Source: an uncultured Candidatus Binatia bacterium
GTDB lineage: Bacteria; Desulfobacterota; Binatia; Bin18
Reading direction: 5' to 3'
Assembly: GCA_965214605.1 (NCBI GenBank)
Contig: OZ243961.1
Coordinates: 2,784,001-2,848,000 of the forward strand
Length of the DNA: 64,000 bases
The position numbers and the translations under genes are program-made. How positions within the stretch are numbered: the stretch's first letter is position 1; every line of letters starts with the position of its first letter. This document shows positions 9,432 to 21,778 of this stretch, piece after piece. The notes under the pieces are model-generated. The model was not told the DNA's origin. It saw nothing but the letters and a program-made list of their open reading frames with translations, and made no database searches.

Positions 9432-12400
9432 TTAAATCCCACGCGGCCGGATATAGCGCTGGTAGACTTTGGGCAGCTCGGTCGGCAGCGAGGCCACATC
9501 GTCGAGCACCAAGTAGCGCGACGGTTCGCACATCTCGCGTAAATAATCATGGCCGGCCTTATCAACCGTCAGACAGAAGGTCAGCACCCCGGCCTCTTCG
9601 GCTTCGCGCAGGGCAACCATGGTGTCCCGAATACCGTACGTCGTGGAGCGTCGATCCGGACCGTAATCCATGTCTTGAGGAAAGCCATCACTCAGCAGGA
9701 TTAAGAGCTTGACCCGACACGCCATCTCTTTGAGTTTTTCCAAAGAATGCCGCACCGCCGGGCCCATCCGGGTCGAGCGTTTGGGTTCGATGGCGCCGAT
9801 GCGCCCTTTGACTGTCGGCGACAAAGCCTCGACAAACGACTTGACGTGGTAGAATTCGATGTTGTCCTTTCCCTGGCCTGAGAAACCATAGATGGCGTAG
9901 GAGTCGCCGATCTCTTCGAGGGCCTCTGCCATGAGCACCAAGGTCTCTTTGGTGACGTCGATAATGCGGCGCGGAGCGGCACGGGCTGGGGGCGCCTGCC
10001 GGTCATCGGACTCTTTGTCTCCGGCGTCACGCGCCAGCGGCTCGTCCGTTGAGGCGCTCATATCGAGCAAAAAGAGGGCGGCCACATCGCGCTCGGTCTG
10101 ACGCCGTTCGGTGTACAGCTTGGCCGAGGGAACGAGCCGGGTGCGCATATCGACCACCGCCGTCACCACGGCGTTCAGATCATACTCGTGGCCGTCTTCA
10201 AGGCCACGCACCAGCCGATACTGTTCCGGCCGGATGCGTTGGAACTCGTGCTTGATAGCCGGGGTAAGGGCCGTATAATTGTTGAGCGTCTGAGCAAAGA
10301 ATTCGCCGGCGTCACCGGTCAGAACGATCTCCCGTAAGCGACACCAACGGGTGCGGTAGTCGGCGATCTGATAGTCCCACTCGTCATAGTAAAAGGTCAG
10401 GCCTTCTTCGCGTTGGGGGTGACGGTGGACGCCCGGAATGGCCGGATCGTTCGTGGCGGTGATTTGCTCCATGTCGCCTTGGCCCGGAAGTTTCCCAGTC
10501 AAGTCGCTGACGTATAGCCCTTGAGGAGTGAGCTTGTTCTGCTTGCCCTCACGAATCTGGAGGTCGACACCAGCCTCAATCAGGGCTTTGAGTTCTTCGG
10601 CCGACAGGGGACTCTCGCCCTCTTCCTCCTCCGTTTTGTCCTCTAACTGCAACTTGGGCATATCGATCGGCTCTTGAGCCGGCGGTGGACTCTCGTCATC
10701 ATCCATGTCCGGATCAATCAACGCATCACCGCTCAATTTGTCAAAGACGAGAGAGCCAAAGTCCGAAGCGTCGTCCGGGTTGAGACGAGCGGCGGCCAGC
10801 GAGGATAGGAGCCGCAGGTAGATCTTGGCCGCTGTTATGGCCGAGTCGTACACCGACCAAGTGGACGCTGTATTCTGTTGGAATCGGAGATTGTCCTCAT
10901 GCACTTTGTGCCCGTTTGTGGTGAGCTGATGGGCAGAGGGCAGCAGGTCTGACCACAGTGCGCTCAGGGAAACGAGGGTTTCGGGCAGCAGGGAGGGCAG
11001 GGACGCGTCGTTCAGCCACGTCACGTCTGCGCTGAGGCCTCGATAGACCGTGGCCAGGCAGGCTTGGACACGCTGGGTTTCGGTGAGTACAAACAGTGCC
11101 TCAACAATGTCGGGATGAACAAAGCAGCGAAAATACTCGGCGAGGCCGCCTACCGGAGTCGCATCTTTACGCATGATTTGACGGACCGCGGGCGGGAGAT
11201 CTGACCAGAGCCGGCCAAGCGAGAACTCGTAGGTGCCGAACTCGCGGCGGCCGGCCTGCTGAGCGGCTAAGGTACGGAACAACCGAAAGTTTTCCTCGTA
11301 GGTCTCAAAGACCTCAATCCGGCCCGGCAGGGGAAGTTCCTCGCCGCAGCTCATGGCTTCTTCAAGCGCGGGTGGGTAGGAGAAAAACTCTTGGCGTCGA
11401 ATGCCGACGGGGGTGCCGGTCAACATCTGGACGTATTTACGCAGCAATTCCTGGACATCGTCGAGATCAATGCCCGGAGACATCTGGCGCAGGACCTGAA
11501 AGCTGGTGCGTGACTCCAGGGCAAAATAGGCGAGCCCGGCCTCGGGGGTGTCGACGGCGATGCGCGCGCCTGTTGCTAACCAGTCCTGGAGCCCCTTATG
11601 ACCGGTTTCTTCATACGCCCGGGGTAAGGCCCGGAGCAGCGGCGGGATGGCAGCCGGAAAGGTGTTGGCGAGGCTGATCAAGCGGTGTTGCAGGTCTGGC
11701 TGTTGAGCCAGCCCCACGGCCTTGGCCACCGGTTCCAGCAACGGGAGTAGACCCGCGACCGCTGGCGGGACTGAACGAATCACCGGGGTCAGGGCGGACA
11801 GATAAAAAGACCGCAGCACTGGACTGAGGCTTGACAGGGTTGGTGGCAGACCAAAAAAAATCTCATTGGCCGCTGTGGCAGATCGGTCGGCCGCCTGTTG
11901 GACGGTGGACAGAAACGCCAGACGTTGGGGCTGACTCAAGGCCACAAAACCGTCTGGCAAACGTGTATAAAACGTCCACGGTCCAGACTCTTGGACCAGG
12001 ACGCCGAGTTTTGCCCAGGCCGCTATTTCCTCGGGACTCAGCACTGGGAGGGCGGCGGCTGCCGACGAGAAATAGGACACGGCCAGAAACTCCCCCTTCC
12101 AGCCTTTGCAGCCCAGCAGAAGCCGCCCCTGCTCGGCCCAAGCACGCAGGCGCGGGCCAAAGGGGACGGGCAGCTGATCAAAAAGCGGGGCCGAGGCTTG
12201 GAAGAACTGTGTCCCAAGGCGACGTGAGACCCGCAGGACATCACGACCGATCGCGACCCATTCTTGGGCCTGCTCAAGGCCGCGCCGTCGTACCAAGTCA
12301 GGTGGAATCGCAAAATAGGCAACCGCGCCGTCGCGTGAAGCTGGAACTTGCCCAGCCAAGTCCTCGCCGACTGCCGTCCAGCGTCCAAAACCCTCGGCGC

Positions 12401-12614
12401 CAAACACCCGCCAGGCGGTCGGCGCTTGACGACAAAAGGCTTGGGCCAGGGTCAGTGAGATCTCGGCCAGCCGGTCCCCTGTGCTCAGAATCGTCTCGCG
12501 TACCTCGGATGTCAGCGCTTCGAGTTCGGCCGACAGCGTCCGGCCCGGTTCGTCTCCAAGCAGATGGCGGGTATCAAACCACAGGTGACGGAGGGAAGAC
12601 ATCAGAGATAACAC
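9432..12614 (-). CDS. Large NorD/CbbO-type VWA-domain protein (1060 aa)
   Basis: YYDEWDY..RTRWC motif, [23 protein letters not shown] and LLSDGFPQD; long helical N-terminal region. Confidence 0.85.
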
Positions 12615-13850: not shown

Positions 13851-14849
13851 TCACGCCTCCTCTGTGTCGTGTAAGATCTGTCTGGCTTTCCTAGAGCCGG
13901 TTTTTGTGCCGTGTCTGCGGGCCGCTAGCCGGGCGAGAGAAATATGGCCTAGGAAGTGCTGCTGCTCGACTAGATGCAGCCGGGCCGAAAACGCGGTCTT
14001 GTCAAGCACGGCGAGCTCGCCGCCGATGAGGACCACGTTGCCCCCCACCACGGGAACCACCACGCTGCGCGGCCACGCCATCTCGAAGGTTGTACGGGCG
14101 GCCTCATAGCTGGAGATGCCTGAGTGCAGGTTAGTGGCAACCACACCGCCCGGAGCCAGACAGGCTCGACATTCGGTGTAAAATTCTTGGGTGGTCAAAT
14201 GGTATGGCACACCCTCAACGCGGTAGGCGTCGAGCAAGATCAGGTCATAGAACCGCCGGCCAGCGGTCTGGCGCAGATATTCCCGGCCGTCCTGGACGGT
14301 GATCTGTTGGCGGCCGTCTTGGATAATGCCAAAGAAGCGTTCGGCTGCCTCAACGACAAGCGCATCAAGCTCAACGGTATGCAGCGTCACTCGCTCCAGA
14401 TAGTGGTGGAGCACCATTTGCAAGCGTCCCCCGCCCAGGCCGATGAGGAGAATGCGTAGGGATTGGGGCCGCCAGATCAGAGGGAGGAGCATGGCTTGGG
14501 TATAGGCTGAGGGGAGCACAAGGGGGTCACTGAGGTCAAGCCGTGACTCGATTTCCTCAACCTGGCTGCGCGGGTGGCGGTAACACAGCAAGAGCTGGTT
14601 TCTTGTGCGGCGGACAATGATGTGGTTATAGGCCGAGACCTGCTCGTGCACGATGCCGGACCGAGCTGCGGCACGGACGGCGGCCAGACGTTGGCAAATG
14701 GCGGCCAAGTTGTGCTTTTGCCAGGCGGAGAAGACGGCCGGACGAGGGGGAGAGGTGAACGACGCTCTCTTGGTGATGAGGAGGTCCTCATCGCTGCCCT
14801 TTGAGGAGCGTGCCGAGAGTCTGTGCCGCATCCAACTCATCCAGCTCAT
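13851..14849 (-). CDS. Spermidine synthase-like class I SAM-dependent methyltransferase
   Basis: ILLIGLGGG, VELDALVV, DGREYL, YDLILLDAY, HLTTQEFY, LAPGGVV. Confidence 0.8.
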   Translation of the reverse strand: MSWMSWMRHRLSARSSKGSDEDLLITKRASFTSPPRPAVFSAWQKHNLAAICQRLAAVRAAARSGIVHEQVSAYNHIIVRRTRNQLLLCYRHPRSQVEEIESRLDLSDPLVLPSAYTQAMLLPLIWRPQSLRILLIGLGGGRLQMVLHHYLERVTLHTVELDALVVEAAERFFGIIQDGRQQITVQDGREYLRQTAGRRFYDLILLDAYRVEGVPYHLTTQEFYTECRACLAPGGVVATNLHSGISSYEAARTTFEMAWPRSVVVPVVGGNVVLIGGELAVLDKTAFSARLHLVEQQHFLGHISLARLAARRHGTKTGSRKARQILHDTEEA

Positions 14850-14926: not shown

Positions 14927-15343
14927 TCATTTGACCGTGGCGATGGCGAGGCGGTGAAGACCCTCAGTCCGAGCCAGATCCATCACACTCACCACCCGAC
15001 CGTGCTGAACCTCTTGGTCGGCGCGGACCACGAGTGTAATCTCACTGCCCTTTTCCCGCTCGGCCTGGAACACGTCCTGAAGTCGCTCAAGGCTCGTCTC
15101 TTGTTCGTTCAAAAACAGGCCGCCGCTCTTGTCTAGACTCACGGTGAGGCGTTTTCGTTCCACTTGAGGGACAGCTGAAGAGGCCTCGGGCAGGCTGACG
15201 TCAACCTGTCCTTCTCTAGCCTGATTAAATGTGGCTAGAAAGCTGAAAGTGATGAAGAAGAAGATGAACATGTTCATGATGATGTCGGTCAGCGCCACCG
15301 AGTCGAGGCTCAGGTTGGGTTGTGAGTGCTTGCTAAACTGCAT
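14927..15343 (-). CDS. exbD: ExbD/TolR family protein (copy 2)
   Basis: TM helix ALTDIIMNMFIFFFI with the conserved Asp; VSLPEA; VRADQEVQHGRVVSVMD. Confidence 0.9.
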   Translation of the reverse strand: MQFSKHSQPNLSLDSVALTDIIMNMFIFFFITFSFLATFNQAREGQVDVSLPEASSAVPQVERKRLTVSLDKSGGLFLNEQETSLERLQDVFQAEREKGSEITLVVRADQEVQHGRVVSVMDLARTEGLHRLAIATVK

Positions 15344-15995
15344 CGCTGAGCGACTCCTGGAGCTGAGCTTGGGTGAGCATGTCGACGAGGCTTTCGGTAT
15401 GTTCTTCGGTGAGTCGGGTCAGATATCTGACCCGGGTGGTGAGGTGATGATAGATCAGATAGTACGGAATCGTCACACTGAGACCGGCGGCGGTGGTAAT
15501 CATGGCTTCGTAGATGCCGCCAGCCAATATATTAATTGTAATCTGATCGCCCATTGCCTCCCAGCTCATAAAGGCGCGGATCAGACCAATAATGGTGCCC
15601 AGAAATCCCAACATCGGTGCCACCCCAACCACAGCGGCTAGTATGCCCAGATAGGACTCCAGACCGGCGACTACAGCCCCGCCTAAACGTTCAAGCCGCC
15701 GGGTCAATTCGCTAGAAGCGAACTCACGGTACACAATGGCGGCTTCAAACAGCCGACTGAGCGGGCTGGTGTATTCCCGGCAGACGCTCAGAGCGAGCGA
15801 GATATTGCCCTCGGCCAGCTGTGCCTCAAGACGTCGGTTGAGGGTGCTGAGGTGGTTCCGAAAGCGCCACAGGGACCAGAATTTGGCCAGTACAACGGCC
15901 AAGGCGACTACCGACAGGGCGGCGATTATGAACAGTACGGTGCCGCCCTTGGCTAGAAAGAGCCAGACTCCTTGATCTGTTGGTGAAATGGTGAT
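15333..15995 (-). CDS. exbB: MotA/TolQ/ExbB proton channel (copy 2); start probably the non-canonical ATC at 15995
   Basis: APMLGFLGTIIG and GIYEAMITTAAGL. The frame continues upstream of TTG 15902 as QGVWLFLAKGGTVLFIIAALSVVA (TM1) up to a TGA at 16010-16008. Confidence 0.85.
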   Translation of the reverse strand: MTISPTDQGVWLFLAKGGTVLFIIAALSVVALAVVLAKFWSLWRFRNHLSTLNRRLEAQLAEGNISLALSVCREYTSPLSRLFEAAIVYREFASSELTRRLERLGGAVVAGLESYLGILAAVVGVAPMLGFLGTIIGLIRAFMSWEAMGDQITINILAGGIYEAMITTAAGLSVTIPYYLIYHHLTTRVRYLTRLTEEHTESLVDMLTQAQLQESLSDAV

Positions 15996-16065
15996 CGTGA
16001 TATCCTTTCAGCCTTTTTTGTTATCACGCTCACCGTTTTTGGCATAGCCCGGTCTTTGCCGTCGA

Positions 16066-18501
16066 TTAGACTTCACAGTTCTTGGTCACGAAATCCTGGA
16101 TCTGTTTTTTGAGCTGCGGGTCTCCTAGTCGGTTCAGCATGGCTCGGATCCCACGGGCGGTCCGACAGCCGGCCTGCGCGTTGCCAAGCGAGACGTTCAG
16201 AACGGCGGCCTCGTACGAGCCGCGAAACCAGATGGGATCCCCGGCCTGTGAGTCTTGGAGCATTTCCTCCCAGTAGGCCAGCGCTTGTTTCTTATTGCCG
16301 TTGACTTCGGCGATACGGGCTAAGCCGGCCAGGGAGACCAGGGAATAGGCTCCATCCTGGAGGTCGGCGTACAGGGTGGCCGCCTGGTCGTAATCTCTGA
16401 CATCCAGATACAGCTGGGCTAGCTCATATTTGAATTTGTCTTGGGATTCGTCGGCGGCAAAGTCGTTGCGGGCAATTTTATCGCTGTACAGGCGGGCCAG
16501 GGTCCGTTTGGCGGCCTGAAGATTTTCCGCGTCGTTCCGTTTTGTGAGGGTCCGAATGTCTTGCACTAAGACCTGGTCAAGGGCTGTGAGCAGTTCGAGA
16601 CGTTTGGCGGTGTCATAGTTGGCAAAGATGGCGTCCACGTTCTTTTCCAGCTCAACAAACAACCCGGCCTTCTCCAGCGTAATCAGCCGGACGCGGGCCA
16701 CAGTTTCAAAGGCATCTTTATGGACCGGATACTGTTGCTCGAAATCCTCTAACAGATCGGCGATCTGGGCGGCGTGAGTGTCGGTGTCCTCGCTGAGTAA
16801 GACCGCATGCATAAACTTGACCCGGCCGCGATAGTTCCTGAGATTATCGCGTTTTTTGCCCCTGGGATTCTGCCCCTCAAACGCGGCGCTACTCTCCTCA
16901 AAGGCGACCAGAGCGCCGGCGATCCGTTCTTTGAGGTCGTCGGAGCTGATCCCTAGATCTTTGTCGGGATCTTCTTCCCACTGTTCGTAGATTGAGAAGT
17001 AGCTCTGGAGGGTGGCAAAGTCGGCCCGGAACCGAAATTCGGTATTGCCGCGAACTTTCTGGTACGCATTCACGGCTTCGAGATAATTTTCCTGCCCGTG
17101 GTGATACTCGCCAAGTCGAAAGTGCGCCTCGTGCAAAGCTTTTGACCGGTTCTTGGGATCGCGCCTGATGAGCTCTCTGGCGGCGTCCACATACAGGCGA
17201 CCGTTGGTCTGATTCTGTGACCGGGCAAACAGGGCCTCGGCAGCTTTAAAACGCAGGTAGGAGGCGTTGATCACATTTTTGGACGGCTGGCTCTTTAAGT
17301 AGCTGTCTAGGGCGGTGATCGCCTGGCGTGACCTCCCGATTCTCAGCAGGGCGTCGCCGAGATAATACTGGGCGTCCTGCTTATAGCGCTGGGCGCGCGG
17401 GTCGTCTGATTCCAGGACCGTCCGGAGGACCGGAACGGCCTTAGAGTACTGGCCTTTGCGAATAAAGGTTGCCGCGTTGTTCCACGGCAGATAGGGGTTG
17501 AGGGCGAGCTTTTCGTCTTCGTTGAGCTCTTTGGCTAGCAGGGCATCGACCCTGTTCTTCCACGAGGTGTCGGCATTTTGAGATTCTTTGACCCCCAACG
17601 CCAGACCGATTGCCCGTTCCCGGGTCTCTTTGCGCTGTCTGCCCCGTTCTTGCAGGCTGCGCTCAAACAGGCTGGTGGCTTCGACTAGCTGTTGTTCGAG
17701 CAGGTCTTCGGGCGAGGGACCTTGGTTGGGGCGCCTTCCGGTCCTGGCCAAACGGCGGGTCTCTTTGAGGGCGTTGCGGACCTTGGCACGCATGCTAGTG
17801 CTGGTCGCCCGATCTTTCAGCAGCGTCTCAAAGTCTCTGATCGCCCAGTCATACTCGCCAAACTCACGCTCGCTCAGAGCACGTCCAAACAGGGCTTCAC
17901 GTTTGACGCTCGACGCCGGCCCGGAGGCGAACTCGGTGAAGCCGTTAATCGCCTCTTCGAGCAGTCTGGTTTGCCGTTCGCCCTCATACACAAAGGATCC
18001 GATATAATTGAGCCAGTTCAGAAAATACAACGAGCGGGCGGCCACATCCTGGGCGTCTCTCCACCTCGCCTCTTCATAGAGCGCCTCAAGATCACCGTCG
18101 ACAGCCATGATCTCTTGCATCCAGCGCTCCATAGCGTCGGTGTTGGCCTTGTAGATATCTTGCAGGGGCGCACTCAGGTCGGTGTAAATCTGCCGTACGG
18201 TCGAACGGTTGGTCTTGACTGCGGTGGCGAGATCGGAGGCCGCGACAAACTCCATGGCCAGCGGCCCAATGGCCGCGATGGCGTCGAGCTGGCCGTTCTT
18301 GCCGTTGTTCTTCAGCGTATTGGCGCGGCTTTTTGCCTGGGCGCTCCGGGACGACAAGTCCGAGATTGTCGCCGCGCTACTTGAACGAGGGGCTGTAAGG
18401 CCGAACACCCAGGTCAACAGGACACACACAACAACGTGAATACGGAACGCGGAACGTCTTTGAGGCCCACGCTTCATCGTTCTGATTGCTGCACTCATCA
18501 T
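16066..18501 (-). CDS. Large exported TPR-repeat protein (811 aa)
   Basis: Basic plus hydrophobic N-terminus ending SSSA|AT, signal-peptide-like; TPR-like helices ALFGRALS..YDWAIRDFE, AQYYLGDALL..AITALD, AHFRLGEYH..YLEAVNAYQ. Confidence 0.75.
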   Translation of the reverse strand: MMSAAIRTMKRGPQRRSAFRIHVVVCVLLTWVFGLTAPRSSSAATISDLSSRSAQAKSRANTLKNNGKNGQLDAIAAIGPLAMEFVAASDLATAVKTNRSTVRQIYTDLSAPLQDIYKANTDAMERWMQEIMAVDGDLEALYEEARWRDAQDVAARSLYFLNWLNYIGSFVYEGERQTRLLEEAINGFTEFASGPASSVKREALFGRALSEREFGEYDWAIRDFETLLKDRATSTSMRAKVRNALKETRRLARTGRRPNQGPSPEDLLEQQLVEATSLFERSLQERGRQRKETRERAIGLALGVKESQNADTSWKNRVDALLAKELNEDEKLALNPYLPWNNAATFIRKGQYSKAVPVLRTVLESDDPRAQRYKQDAQYYLGDALLRIGRSRQAITALDSYLKSQPSKNVINASYLRFKAAEALFARSQNQTNGRLYVDAARELIRRDPKNRSKALHEAHFRLGEYHHGQENYLEAVNAYQKVRGNTEFRFRADFATLQSYFSIYEQWEEDPDKDLGISSDDLKERIAGALVAFEESSAAFEGQNPRGKKRDNLRNYRGRVKFMHAVLLSEDTDTHAAQIADLLEDFEQQYPVHKDAFETVARVRLITLEKAGLFVELEKNVDAIFANYDTAKRLELLTALDQVLVQDIRTLTKRNDAENLQAAKRTLARLYSDKIARNDFAADESQDKFKYELAQLYLDVRDYDQAATLYADLQDGAYSLVSLAGLARIAEVNGNKKQALAYWEEMLQDSQAGDPIWFRGSYEAAVLNVSLGNAQAGCRTARGIRAMLNRLGDPQLKKQIQDFVTKNCEV

Positions 18502-18522
18502 GTGGGTTTACTCCTCATTCAA

Positions 18523-19758
18523 CTAGCTCAGGTCTCGCAGGAAGCGTTCCATTTCCGTTTCAAACCGACTGCCAAAGGTCAGGACGAGGATCTGCCTGGT
18601 CAGCTGTCTCTCGTCGGTCAGCGGAATGAACTCTCCCCCTCCGGCTTTGGCGATTGAGGCCATGGTGTCCCGGAACTCCTGATAAAAATCGGGCAAGGGG
18701 GATGGGCTAAAGGCGACGTTTGTCAGATGGGCGGTCTGTTTCCACAAGGCTCGCTCAAAGTCTTCATGCATCTTGTCGGCCAGGTCCATGGCGCTCACAT
18801 AGCCGCCCCCGGCCCGGAAGCTCTGGGCGAGATTGAGAATACTGCTGACTGATTCGGGGTGCGGAGAAGAGCCCGACACCACGACCACAATCCGCCGCGA
18901 GTTCTTGCGCCAGCTGAAATCGTGAATCGCCACATCAACGCCCTCGTACACCGCTTCGGGCCAGTCGCCCCCGCCACCGGCTTCGAGGGTGTCGAGAAAG
19001 CTCTGCAGCTTCGAGGTGTTGAAGCTGAAATCGACCCAGCGGGTGACGAACTCTTCGCCCCGATCACGATAGGCCACAATGCCAACTCGGGTGGTATCGA
19101 CCATGTTTTGGAGCGCTTCGATCATGTTGCTGAGGCGCTCTCGGACCGACTCAATCACAAACTGCATGCTGTCGGTCGCGTCCACGACAAGAGCGACGTC
19201 AATCCCGACCCGACGGAGACCACCGACGCGGTCGCCGATGTCACCGCCGACCACACCGTTGAGCGATCCGCTCAGATTGGTGATCTGGGTAGTCAGCCCT
19301 TTGAGATCATCAGAGGTACGACCTACCTGAATCGTGACCGGACTGAAGGCGTTACTCACAATCGGCAAGGCGGTCGGCTTGATGGCCGCGACACGGCCAG
19401 CCAACGGCGGGGGGCCCTCCGACCACTTCTTAACCTTCTTATGCGGCAGCATATCCATTGATAAGGCCCCGGGTAGGTCTCGCAGAGACGGCTCACCCTC
19501 CCAGTCGTCCGGATTTTGTTCGTCGACCTGCGCCGCCGGGTCTTGCGCCGCCGGTAGGGCAGCCACTTTTATGAGCTTGCGGTCGTTGTTGATTACGGTC
19601 ACGGCGGTGGTGGCAAACACCGACAGCAGCAGTAGATGGGCGACGGTGGAGACGGCAAACCAGCGCGCGTTCTTGCCGAACCGGCCTCTGGAAAGCCACA
19701 GGTCTTCTTGGATGTCGGTGACACCGGGCTGGATGTGTTCTTTTTCAGCAGAAGCCAT
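18523..19758 (-). CDS. Membrane-anchored VWA-domain protein with a TonB/TolA-like SxxxH TM helix
   Basis: TM WFAVSTVAHLLLLSVFA; Pro/acidic linker; VWA domain IDVALVVDATDSM, VGIVAYRD, GGGGDWPEA, IAKAGGGEF. Confidence 0.8.
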   Translation of the reverse strand: MASAEKEHIQPGVTDIQEDLWLSRGRFGKNARWFAVSTVAHLLLLSVFATTAVTVINNDRKLIKVAALPAAQDPAAQVDEQNPDDWEGEPSLRDLPGALSMDMLPHKKVKKWSEGPPPLAGRVAAIKPTALPIVSNAFSPVTIQVGRTSDDLKGLTTQITNLSGSLNGVVGGDIGDRVGGLRRVGIDVALVVDATDSMQFVIESVRERLSNMIEALQNMVDTTRVGIVAYRDRGEEFVTRWVDFSFNTSKLQSFLDTLEAGGGGDWPEAVYEGVDVAIHDFSWRKNSRRIVVVVSGSSPHPESVSSILNLAQSFRAGGGYVSAMDLADKMHEDFERALWKQTAHLTNVAFSPSPLPDFYQEFRDTMASIAKAGGGEFIPLTDERQLTRQILVLTFGSRFETEMERFLRDLS

Positions 19759-19809
19759 AGGAGTACTCCTCCTCTTCCGGCTCCTCTCAGAGCCGAAGAG
19801 CGTGCGGTC

Positions 19810-20229
19810 TTAGCCCGCCCCCTGCTGGGCGGCGATGGCAATCTGGTTCGCACCGGCCCGCTGGGCAGCCGATAGAATTTTGACGGCCTCGCCCAGAATG
19901 ACCGATTGGTCGCCCTCAAGGACGACCGGGACATCCTGCATCGTCTCGATAATGGGCCGCAGATACAGTTCTAATTCTGCCAGAGCGACCGGCTGATTAT
20001 TGACAAAAATTTCTTTCTGGGGCGTTACCGTGACAATGATCTGGCGCGGTTCGGACTCGGTTTCTTGGACTCGTGGCAGATCAATTGTGGCGCCCGACTG
20101 GACCATCGCCACACTGGTCACCATAAAGATGATCAGCAGGACGAGGAAGATATCGGTCAGGGGGGTGATGTTGATCTCGGACATGACCTCATCACGTCCG
20201 CCCCTTTTCTTCGGACCGTTCATTGCCAT
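19810..20229 (-). CDS. exbD: ExbD/TolR family protein (copy 1)
   Basis: EINITPLTDIFLVLLIIFMV, IDLP. Confidence 0.93.
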   Translation of the reverse strand: MAMNGPKKRGGRDEVMSEINITPLTDIFLVLLIIFMVTSVAMVQSGATIDLPRVQETESEPRQIIVTVTPQKEIFVNNQPVALAELELYLRPIIETMQDVPVVLEGDQSVILGEAVKILSAAQRAGANQIAIAAQQGAG

Positions 20230-20244
20230 GTCTGTGTCTCCTTC

Positions 20245-20895
20245 CTAAGCGGCGGACTGGACCGCTTCTTTTCTGCTGGTGCGGATCGCGTCGATAATGC
20301 GATCCGCACCAATCGTCATGGCGGTATCAATACGTTCCAGCTTGGTATTGAAATAATTGTAGAAGATAACCGCAATAATGGCGACCGCTAAGCCCAGCGC
20401 CGTGGCCACCAGGGCCTCAGAAATACCGCCGGCCACAATGGCAAATCCGCCGCTGCCCTCGACCGCCATGTTTTGGAAAGATTTGATGATCCCGACGACC
20501 GTGCCCAGCAGGCCAATAAACGGTGCACTCACACCGGTGGTGGCCAGAATCCAGATTGCGCCCTTGAGCCCCTCGGTCTCTTCAAGGCGGCGCTCTTCGG
20601 CCAGGCTGGACAACTGCTCGGTGGATTCGTCCTGCTGGCGAGAGATAATCTCGCCGAACACCCGACCGGCCGGCTCTTTGCTCTGCCCCTGGCTGGTCTC
20701 TAAGGCGGCATTAAAATCACCCTGCTGCAAGGGAGTGACCAGGTCTCTGGCCAGATGTAAGGTTTTCGTCATAATCCCTCTCAGGGTCCATAGCCGCTCC
20801 AGAATGATGGTGATACACACCACCGACATGATGATAAGCGGGTAGCTGACATACCAGCCCTGGTGAATCATATCCATTACGCTTAAGCCTTCCAC
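20245..20895 (-). CDS. exbB: MotA/TolQ/ExbB proton channel (copy 1)
   Basis: APFIGLLGTVVGIIKSF and GISEALVATALGL. GTG start at 20895 after AAGGAGG; the ORF-track extension overlaps padR. Confidence 0.93.
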   Translation of the reverse strand: MEGLSVMDMIHQGWYVSYPLIIMSVVCITIILERLWTLRGIMTKTLHLARDLVTPLQQGDFNAALETSQGQSKEPAGRVFGEIISRQQDESTEQLSSLAEERRLEETEGLKGAIWILATTGVSAPFIGLLGTVVGIIKSFQNMAVEGSGGFAIVAGGISEALVATALGLAVAIIAVIFYNYFNTKLERIDTAMTIGADRIIDAIRTSRKEAVQSAA

Positions 20896-20959
20896 GTTCC
20901 TGTCCTCCTTGTGGTTAAAAACGATGATCTCTAGATGGTTGCCATCGTCCACTTTTGTG

Positions 20960-21565
20960 TTACTGACCCAGATTTTCCTCTTTGGTCGAAGAGGGAGGGG
21001 GCGGTTCTGGACCAACGAAGTTGTCTGGCACGGCGAACTCGTGCAGAAATTGCTCAAGCCAGTCGATCTCGGCCTTGTGGTGGATGAGGCCGTGTTCAAT
21101 AATCTTGGCCTGGGTGGGAGTGACCTTTTTTTGGGCTGTCCAGTAGGTCTGTTGATCGACAATCCAAGCCAACCGTTTTTGGGCCCATTTCAGATGTTTG
21201 TTCAGGGCAGCGCGCAGTTCGTCGGGCTTGATGAAATGCCCAAAGGCTAAGGCCGCGTTAAGGGGATCAAACACCTTCTCTCGGCTCTTGGTGTCAAATA
21301 ACAGGCGACGCAGCTCGGTCTGCAGATACCCACGACCGGCCGAGGTGATCTGGTAAATCTGCCGCATCGGATAGCGCCCTTTCTGTTCGGCCCAGGCTTT
21401 CTCCACATATCCGGAACGTTCGAGCTGGCCGAGGTTGTAGTACAGCGATCCCCCGCTGAGATTGATATACGTTGCGTATAGCCGCCGTTCGACCTCCTGA
21501 CGCAGCTCGTAGCCGTGATACGGTTGCTCGGACAGAAGACCAAGAATGACGAGTTGAACGCTCAC
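20960..21565 (-). CDS. PadR-family transcriptional regulator
   Basis: LVILGLLSEQPYHGYEL, GSLYYNLGQLERSGYV, YQITSAGR; long C-terminal dimerisation domain. Confidence 0.92.
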   Translation of the reverse strand: MSVQLVILGLLSEQPYHGYELRQEVERRLYATYINLSGGSLYYNLGQLERSGYVEKAWAEQKGRYPMRQIYQITSAGRGYLQTELRRLLFDTKSREKVFDPLNAALAFGHFIKPDELRAALNKHLKWAQKRLAWIVDQQTYWTAQKKVTPTQAKIIEHGLIHHKAEIDWLEQFLHEFAVPDNFVGPEPPPPSSTKEENLGQ

Positions 21566-21583: not shown

Positions 21584-21599
21584 TAGTTCACGTGGACTA
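21584..21599. promoter_or_regulatory. Candidate PadR operator 1 (TAGT-N8-ACTA)
   Basis: TAGTTCACGTGGACTA, a near-perfect palindrome just upstream of the padR RBS. Confidence 0.55.
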
Positions 21600-21735: not shown

Positions 21736-21778
21736 TAGTTTGCACGGACTACATAAGCGAGATTCAAAATTTTGTCAA
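21736..21778 (-). promoter_or_regulatory. Sigma70-type promoter of the padR operon overlapped by candidate operator 2
   Basis: Minus strand TTGACA(21778-21773)-N17-TATGTA(21755-21750); TAGTTTGCACGGACTA at 21736-21751. Confidence 0.55.

Follow-up and report, generated by a model that had tools for sequence, protein, structure and literature searches.

The question raised by this locus is what an ExbB/ExbD-type motor drives when neither a TonB C-terminal domain (TonB_C) nor a TonB-dependent receptor is found beside it. The window, a stretch of 64,000 nucleotides (nt) from an uncultured Candidatus Binatia bacterium (contig OZ243961.1 of assembly GCA_965214605.1; C1:2784001-2848000 of a 4.37 Mb genome), carries on its minus strand a padR gene, a motor pair (exbB1 and exbD1), a gene whose product has a VWA (von Willebrand factor A) domain, a gene for a large tetratricopeptide repeat (TPR) protein and a second motor pair (exbB2 and exbD2). 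A preliminary description of this DNA had read these as one tight array of seven genes, in which two motors or a hetero-motor drive the VWA domain against a TPR scaffold under the control of PadR. Open reading frames (ORFs) and Pfam matches bear out the array itself, all seven genes being present and closely packed. The machine is probably smaller, a Ton/Tol-like force-transduction module of four genes (exbB1, exbD1, the VWA gene and the TPR gene) that is PadR-regulated in one Binatia family, f1, and has ExbB2-ExbD2 outside its core. The motor-driven VWA protein of the preliminary description therefore survives in part: an ExbBD motor coupled to a VWA protein anchored by a transmembrane (TM) helix, with a TPR partner and with no TonB_C or receptor, is retained, and the dual motor is held to be unlikely.

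The extent of the conserved unit was read from related loci. A locus search with the VWA protein, using one genome per species, returned 80 loci, on which the window proteins were then compared by tblastn. The VWA gene stands beside motor and/or TPR genes in 53 of these, which form the synteny set; the other 27 (L060-62, L065-75, L077-89), which match the VWA domain only, were not counted for synteny. Genes for ExbB, ExbD, the VWA protein and the TPR protein are all present in 48 of the 53 loci, in the order exbB-exbD-VWA-TPR in 44 and in the order VWA-exbB-exbD-TPR in four, and the five incomplete loci (L011, L023, L031, L037, L056) end at a contig edge where the missing gene would fall. The synteny expected from the preliminary description thus recurs in its four-gene part, beyond chance, and the conserved unit is the four genes exbB-exbD-VWA-TPR, not seven. 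Clustering of all ORFs in the 53 loci gave no fifth gene family common to the diverse loci; an ORF cluster beyond the core, seen in 15 loci, was rejected as a protein with an SCP2 domain that is unrelated to the machine. The VWA protein has a match (E <= 1e-25) in 73 of the 101 Binatia genomes sampled (G087 included) and in 65 of the 89 high-quality genomes. The core was found in 16 of the 19 Binatia families sampled, and families low in the VWA gene include f3 (0/5 genomes), f14 (0/6) and f7 (2/11). VWA relatives from Planctomycetota (L062, L069, L070, L073) were considered as members of the same system and set aside, since motor genes were found in none of the four examined. Cluster look-alikes from Planctomycetota and Verrucomicrobiota are recorded as a lead only.

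The topology and fold of the VWA protein carry much of the argument. Its AlphaFold2 (AF2) model consists of an N-terminal TM helix (residues 30-62), as the preliminary description had noted, a disordered stretch (62-181) with a predicted local distance difference test score (pLDDT) below 50, and a VWA domain (185-411) with pLDDT mostly above 80. Within the helix lies an S-x3-H motif whose S37 and H41 are unchanged in all 28 homologues of an alignment that reaches down to 36% identity. The same motif was read in 10 further order-variant or distant loci, including L044, L049, L054, L055, L056, L058, L059, L063 and L064, a count that leaves out L028, L041 and L076, where the N-terminus is unreadable. 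A second conserved motif begins about 26 residues past the TM helix, in the linker; its consensus is EGEPSLxDLPGxL, and residues G88, S91, L92, G97 and L99 are invariant in the 28-homologue alignment. D193 and S197 of a D-x-T-x-S motif in the VWA domain (D193-x-T195-x-S197) are also invariant there. No NCBIfam model matched the protein, and Foldseek of its model returned BatB and integrin-type VWA domains at the top, with anthrax-receptor VWA domains as well; the closest solved structure to the head is Bacteroides BatB (3ibs, E 5e-9). As modelled, the VWA protein has the three-domain layout of TonB and TolA with a different head.

The motor subunits keep the residues expected of their family. 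The motif P-x-x-G-x-L-G-T is kept in the translations of both ExbB1 and ExbB2, as first described, and the second channel motif of ExbB1 is G-x-x-E-A-x-x-x-T, in which the spacing is one residue longer than had been stated. Both ExbDs have the TM aspartate that the preliminary description ascribed to them.

The partners of a classical Ton system were looked for at increasing distance. A Pfam scan that covered 14 proteins around the locus found no TonB_C domain in any operon protein and no TolB or OmpA-like family among the operon proteins and flanking genes. The genome has two TonB_C matches, each adjoining ExbB homologues, and nine Plug matches, and all of these lie beyond the window, which is in line with the preliminary description; canonical Ton and Tol-like sets are located elsewhere in the genome, with a TolQ-like locus and a weak TonB_C-type neighbour at C1:678-681 kb. 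Hidden Markov models built from the eight receptors of the genome and from 22 Binatia TonB_C segments were run on every ORF in the 800 kb of the 53 related loci, and as a control they retrieved the genome's own TonB and every one of its receptors. They found no TonB_C among the ORFs of these loci and one TonB-dependent receptor, in L042, 6 kb downstream. TonB_C and Plug were also sampled in 31 genomes. The VWA gene is present in 24 of them, and in these it has no TonB_C within 100 kb; the closest Plug, among the 150 of 178 matches that were listed, is 27 kb away, in G015. With no TonB_C and one receptor in 800 kb, and no TonB_C within 100 kb in 24 genomes, a TonB protein or receptor that is merely displaced here, for which the preliminary description had allowed, does not account for the locus.

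Two further observations concern the Ton genes themselves. The canonical TonB (G000:C1:1272740-1274800) is beside two different ExbB paralogues, one of them in an open frame of 464 amino acids (aa), an arrangement that recalls what we take to be TonB2-type clusters with a TtpC-like large ExbB. At G000:C1:3676700-3679300 a gene for a TonB-dependent receptor looks split into short frames, with an in-frame TAG in the Plug match.

Family f3 offers a comparison within the class. Here an ExbB1-clade motor adjoins a protein that has S-x3-H and is headed by TonB_2/TonB_C, and there is no TPR gene; the motif was seen in the TonB_2-headed protein of L101. No significant sequence similarity to the VWA protein of the window was found in this TonB_2-headed protein, nor in the neighbouring VWA/Glucodextran_B protein of f3, and the motor is the one part in common. 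One motor clade is thus paired with different heads, which fits a role of the VWA protein as a transducer. In the f3 loci L148 (G002:C1, 5230-8702) and L149 (G011:C121, 5130-8797) the motor comes after the TonB_2-headed protein; it is flanked by a convergent gene for a 420-430-aa VWA and Glucodextran_B protein of another VWA family, and a gene for an FG-GAP/MORN-like protein precedes. This layout of f3, in which a TonB-like transducer has a free VWA protein as its neighbour, may be a related arrangement.

The fourth member of the core, the TPR protein, is modelled as an all-helical solenoid (pLDDT 87). The signal-like N-terminus reported earlier is a Sec-type signal peptide, and the homologues likewise have Sec-type signal peptides that end in AxA, with no conserved lipobox. 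Two conserved cysteines lie near the C-terminus (C779 and C809), and the signal peptide together with this cysteine pattern fits what would be expected of a soluble periplasmic protein. NCBIfam gave weak, generic matches (tol_pal_ybgF with 36 bits against a cut-off of 90, BatC with 25 bits against a cut-off of 175), and Foldseek of the model returned generic solenoid matches only, with TM-scores of at most 0.26. The protein can be compared with the TPR scaffolds of the Campylobacter flagellar motor (PDB 9hmf, chains K and L), which are large periplasmic solenoids around a 5:2-type stator; the TM-scores of 0.15-0.24 between these chains and the model reflect generic solenoid likeness and are no evidence of kinship. 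Complex prediction of TPR residues 45-811 with the VWA head (183-411), each with its alignment and with the linker left out, scored 0.24 and 0.27 against a mark of 0.32, which speaks neither for nor against a contact of the two.

Regulation by PadR appears to be confined to the nearest relatives. All 14 close-clade loci that extend far enough have padR upstream of exbB1. The more distant loci are without the gene, which is limited to a clade whose VWA identity is 52% or more. Its product stays under the cut-off of every NCBIfam PadR model and has the features of a PadR repressor, namely a winged helix-turn-helix domain (PF03551), a C-terminal dimerisation domain (PF10400) and an inverted repeat at its own promoter region. 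The repeat, TAGT-N8-ACTA (16 nt, at most one mismatch), occurs, in the window and each of the 14 loci (15/15), at -34/-35 of padR, with conserved arms and a variable spacer, and L010 has a related operator-like site at -167. The exact motif TAGTC-N5-[AG]AACTA occurs three times in the 4.37 Mb genome, two of them here, and shuffled sequences gave 0-1 per 2 Mb. TAGT-N8-ACTA also resembles ATGT-N8-ACAT, which we take to be the PadR consensus. The locus therefore looks like that of a dedicated, autoregulated PadR repressor which would bind a predicted operator, and this conserved predicted operator is what the present locus adds. The start codon of padR varies between loci. Ten of them (L012-L019, L026, L027) have ATT where the window has GTG (21563-21565), and from the in-frame stop upstream to the conserved N-terminus (ISVQLV, MSVQLV in the window) they contain no canonical start, which suggests translation of padR by ATT initiation in the genus of these loci.

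A mechanism can be proposed from these parts. ExbB1 and ExbD1 would form a proton-driven motor in the inner membrane, and the VWA protein would dock on it in the manner of TonB and TolA, through the N-terminal TM helix with S37-x3-H41; the docking, and the pulling by which force would be transduced, are put forward by analogy with those proteins. The disordered linker, with a candidate motor box, would span the periplasm, and the VWA head with its metal site like the metal-ion-dependent adhesion site (MIDAS) would take the place of the TonB_C domain. The secreted TPR solenoid would be an obligate periplasmic partner that serves as scaffold, regulator or ligand. In family f1, the PadR repressor would bind the two TAGT-N8-ACTA sites at its own promoter region, and a small-molecule signal would switch the machine on through it. 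Our guess at the cellular role is stress-induced envelope maintenance or tethering.

The closest published counterpart is a class of vWA-type force transducers of the SHLS type, which was proposed in silico in 2025 (Mol Biol Evol 42(6):msaf138; PMC12204202). As described there, the TM helix of these proteins is of the SHLS type, a disordered region holds the motor box and the C-terminus is vWA; their genes adjoin tolQ-like, paired tolR-like and TPR genes, and no phenotype is known. A full-text search found no literature on this kind beyond that paper. The VWA protein of the window is like the published type in its Ser/His TM motif, its disordered linker with a conserved motif and its vWA C-terminus, and the locus is like it in having TolQ/ExbB-like and TolR/ExbD-like genes adjacent and a TPR gene co-occurring. 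It differs in having one ExbD gene (two are present only in L063), whereas a heterologous pair is described in bacteria of the Planctomycetota-Verrucomicrobiota-Chlamydiota (PVC) group; in a TPR gene that is downstream of the VWA gene here and upstream there; and in the dedicated PadR with its conserved predicted operator and the orphan second ExbBD of family f1. The host class, Binatia, also sets it apart, as neither 'Binat' nor 'Desulfobacter' appears in the main text of PMC12204202. The preliminary description knew of no characterised system with this layout, which holds for experimental work, but the layout had been described computationally in that paper.

The module can also be compared with the classical systems. 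It shares with the Ton system an ExbB/ExbD-family motor, an S-x3-H TM anchor, a long flexible periplasmic linker and the three-domain layout; unlike Ton, it has no TonB_C and no nearby receptor, its motor pair scores far below the cut-offs of the NCBIfam ExbB/ExbD equivalogs, and the canonical TonB locus is separate. Tol-Pal with CpoB/YbgF likewise combines a motor, an S-x3-H transducer and a periplasmic TPR protein in one operon, and the best NCBIfam models are tolQ and tolR for the motor pair and tol_pal_ybgF for the TPR protein, all well below their cut-offs. In contrast to Tol-Pal, no TolB or Pal is present in the operon, the head is a VWA domain and not TolA/TonB_2, and the genome has its TolQ-like locus elsewhere.

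The second motor pair bears on the proposal that ExbB1D1 and ExbB2D2 are both integral, as two stators or as a hetero-motor that drives the VWA domain against the TPR protein. The exbB2-exbD2 pair directly follows the TPR gene in the window and in five loci (L010, L011, L020, L021, L024), but in eight relatives it is 3.3-5 kb downstream of the TPR gene, past a molybdopterin oxidoreductase gene and opposite-strand genes that are unrelated. L012 has only a partial exbB2 match of 42%, 7.3 kb downstream at the locus end; in L014 the pair was not found within 7.4 kb, and L025 is without it. Wherever family f1 has the pair, it lies no more than about 8 kb from the core, yet ExbB2 orthologues (> 60% identity) occur only in that family (5/5 f1 genomes), with best matches of at most 41% elsewhere, against a core found in 16 of the 19 families. 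The TM aspartate kept in both ExbDs would suit two working motors; ExbB2, however, is 27% identical to ExbB1, and in the ExbB tree its clade (100/99) is apart from the VWA-linked ExbB1 clade (99/99). The pair lacks an adjacent transducer gene of its own, which favours a shared machine, but the ExbB2 clade joins the TonB_C-adjacent ExbBs of families f12 and f15, weakly (91/72) and on long branches that leave the join unsure. The start of exbB2 also counts against an integral part. In the genus of the window exbB2 has no canonical start codon, and in the window, L010 and L011 none precedes TM1; from the first canonical start (TTG 15902) most of TM1 would be lost, the frame is open upstream and this open part aligns with full-length relatives, so a non-canonical ATT or ATC start near 15989 is likely. 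A conserved GAAAGGA-N-ATCACGAT(C/T) is found before exbB2 (15987-15994 in the window). The 3' arm of a hairpin with 17-nt arms covers the likely start, and the arms are kept in L011 and not in L010; such a start-covering hairpin may hold back translation of the second motor. Taken together, we hold an integral dual motor to be unlikely, and as far as conservation and phylogeny go, ExbB2-ExbD2 appears as a linked but separable, family-specific orphan motor outside the core.

An elaboration of the orphan motor is that f1 has a stator-swapping machine, in which ExbB1D1 is the cognate motor and ExbB2D2 is a captured Ton-type motor whose TonB was lost, kept at low expression by the non-canonical start and the start-masking hairpin, with the whole system gated by a ligand-sensing PadR. 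As a joint claim this is a long shot. If it were true, the locus would be a chemically switched Ton-like machine, and the ligand of PadR would point to the function of vWA transducers.

Two other explanations take the VWA protein in different directions. Bat operons encode a MoxR ATPase and a DUF58 protein together with BatA-E, and to our knowledge they are without an ExbBD motor. A static membrane complex of this type, with the VWA protein as an anchor and not a transducer and with ExbBD as neighbours that energise something else, would agree with the BatB match of the head, the weak BatC score of the TPR protein and the combination of a membrane-anchored VWA protein with a TPR protein that is known from the aerotolerance proteins BatA/BatB/BatC of Bacteroides and Leptospira. 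It is nevertheless quite improbable, as neither MoxR nor DUF58 was found among the 14 scanned proteins, and the invariant S-x3-H and the strict adjacency of exbB-exbD in two gene orders would be left unexplained. The parts are also analogous to those of the Agl-Glt apparatus of Myxococcus for surface adhesion and gliding, where a TolQR-type motor, a VWA protein and TPR proteins occur together and the motor's task would be to shift a VWA adhesin, which has been proposed for CglB; gliding is raised as a possible function in PMC12204202 too. The VWA protein of the window, however, is anchored in the inner membrane with a linker of about 120 residues, and ORF clustering in the 53 loci, which was not a search aimed at Glt homologues, showed no conserved outer-membrane or Glt-like partner nearby. 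This explanation is very unlikely.

Several points weigh against the four-gene force-transduction module as well. The core seems to be the Binatia form of the vWA force-transducer kind, and that kind is known from computation only; the likeness to it, for which Tichowtungia aerotolerans is the reference, is one of layout and motifs as that paper describes them. SHLS is not clearly conserved at its Leu and its second Ser, where F48/L47 and T50 are found, and the candidate motor box shows no beta strand in the AF2 monomer. A VWA match is missing in 28 of the 101 Binatia genomes, and the module is accordingly dispensable. The related loci are kin, mostly of one class, and counts such as 48 of 53 overstate their independence. 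The four examined Planctomycetota relatives of the VWA protein are in contexts (FHA-VWA; zinc-ribbon VWA with Hsp70-like genes) that are not linked to a motor, and they do not belong to the PVC family of that paper. A scan of the locus for promoters and terminators gave counts at the level of shuffled sequence, so the gap of about 65 nt is the only pointer to co-transcription of padR with exbB1.

The positions of the features are collected in Table 1. Downstream of exbB1, the gaps between genes are 15, 51, 21 and 76 nt, when exbB2 is counted from its ATT start, and exbB2 and exbD2 overlap by 11 nt. The ORF list had exbB1 start at TTG 21162, inside padR. A better candidate is GTG 20895, which is 8 nt after AAGGAGG; this start is likely, as it would give a product of 216 aa that matches its relatives (about 214 aa).

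Table 1. Genes and sites of the locus, in window positions.
Feature	Position	Strand	Details
padR	20960..21565	minus	201 aa; PF03551 5.6e-17; Vir_act_alpha_C-type C-terminus, PF10400 3.3e-4
exbB1 (MotA/TolQ/ExbB family; predicted motor pentamer subunit)	20245..20895	minus	PF01618 4.6e-31
exbD1 (predicted motor dimer subunit)	19810..20229	minus	PF02472 3.4e-26; TM Asp D26
VWA-headed TonB/TolA-like protein (putative transducer)	18523..19758	minus	411 aa; PF00092 1.3e-10; also Pfam VWA_4 and VWA_2
TPR solenoid, predicted secreted	16066..18501	minus	811 aa; several Pfam TPR families
Hairpin between TPR gene and exbB2	15986..16038	minus	-21.5 kcal/mol, z -2.47
exbB2 (other ExbB lineage)	15333..15989	minus	Pfam 3.5e-24; full length only from a non-canonical ATT/ATC start
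exbD2 (predicted ExbB2 partner)	14927..15343	minus	Pfam 8.2e-24; TM Asp D20
Distal PadR operator-like site	21736..21751	minus	TAGTCCGTGCAAACTA; shares bases with the -10 of a promoter-like site, TTGACA-N17-TATGTA
Proximal PadR operator-like site	21584..21599	minus	TAGTCCACGTGAACTA; 34 nt before the padR start codon

Two neighbouring genes were also noted. A spermidine-synthase-like gene (13851-14849, minus strand; Pfam 2.4e-10, NCBIfam below cut-offs) comes after exbD2 in 12 related loci and directly after the TPR gene in L025, and it looks like a conserved f1 neighbour with no evident tie to the machine. Further downstream, 9432-12614 on the minus strand encodes a 1060-aa protein that no NCBIfam family covers and whose C-terminus matches VWA only weakly, at 19.5 bits and under the cut-off; used as query, it turned up only in L010, the nearest relative.

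Overall, vWA-headed transducers would be a third partner class for proton motors of the Ton/Tol type, a class that was proposed in PMC12204202 and is not established by this locus. What was first read as a dual motor would be a lineage-specific add-on and not part of the design. The locus offers two handles on the class. One is the dedicated PadR with its sharply conserved and nearly genome-unique predicted operator; the ligand of this PadR would tell in what circumstances the machine is needed. The other is the ExbB1-clade motor itself, whose partner's head is a VWA domain in most Binatia families and of TonB_2 type in f3, and this variation of heads within one motor clade supports head swapping on a common chassis of anchor and motor.

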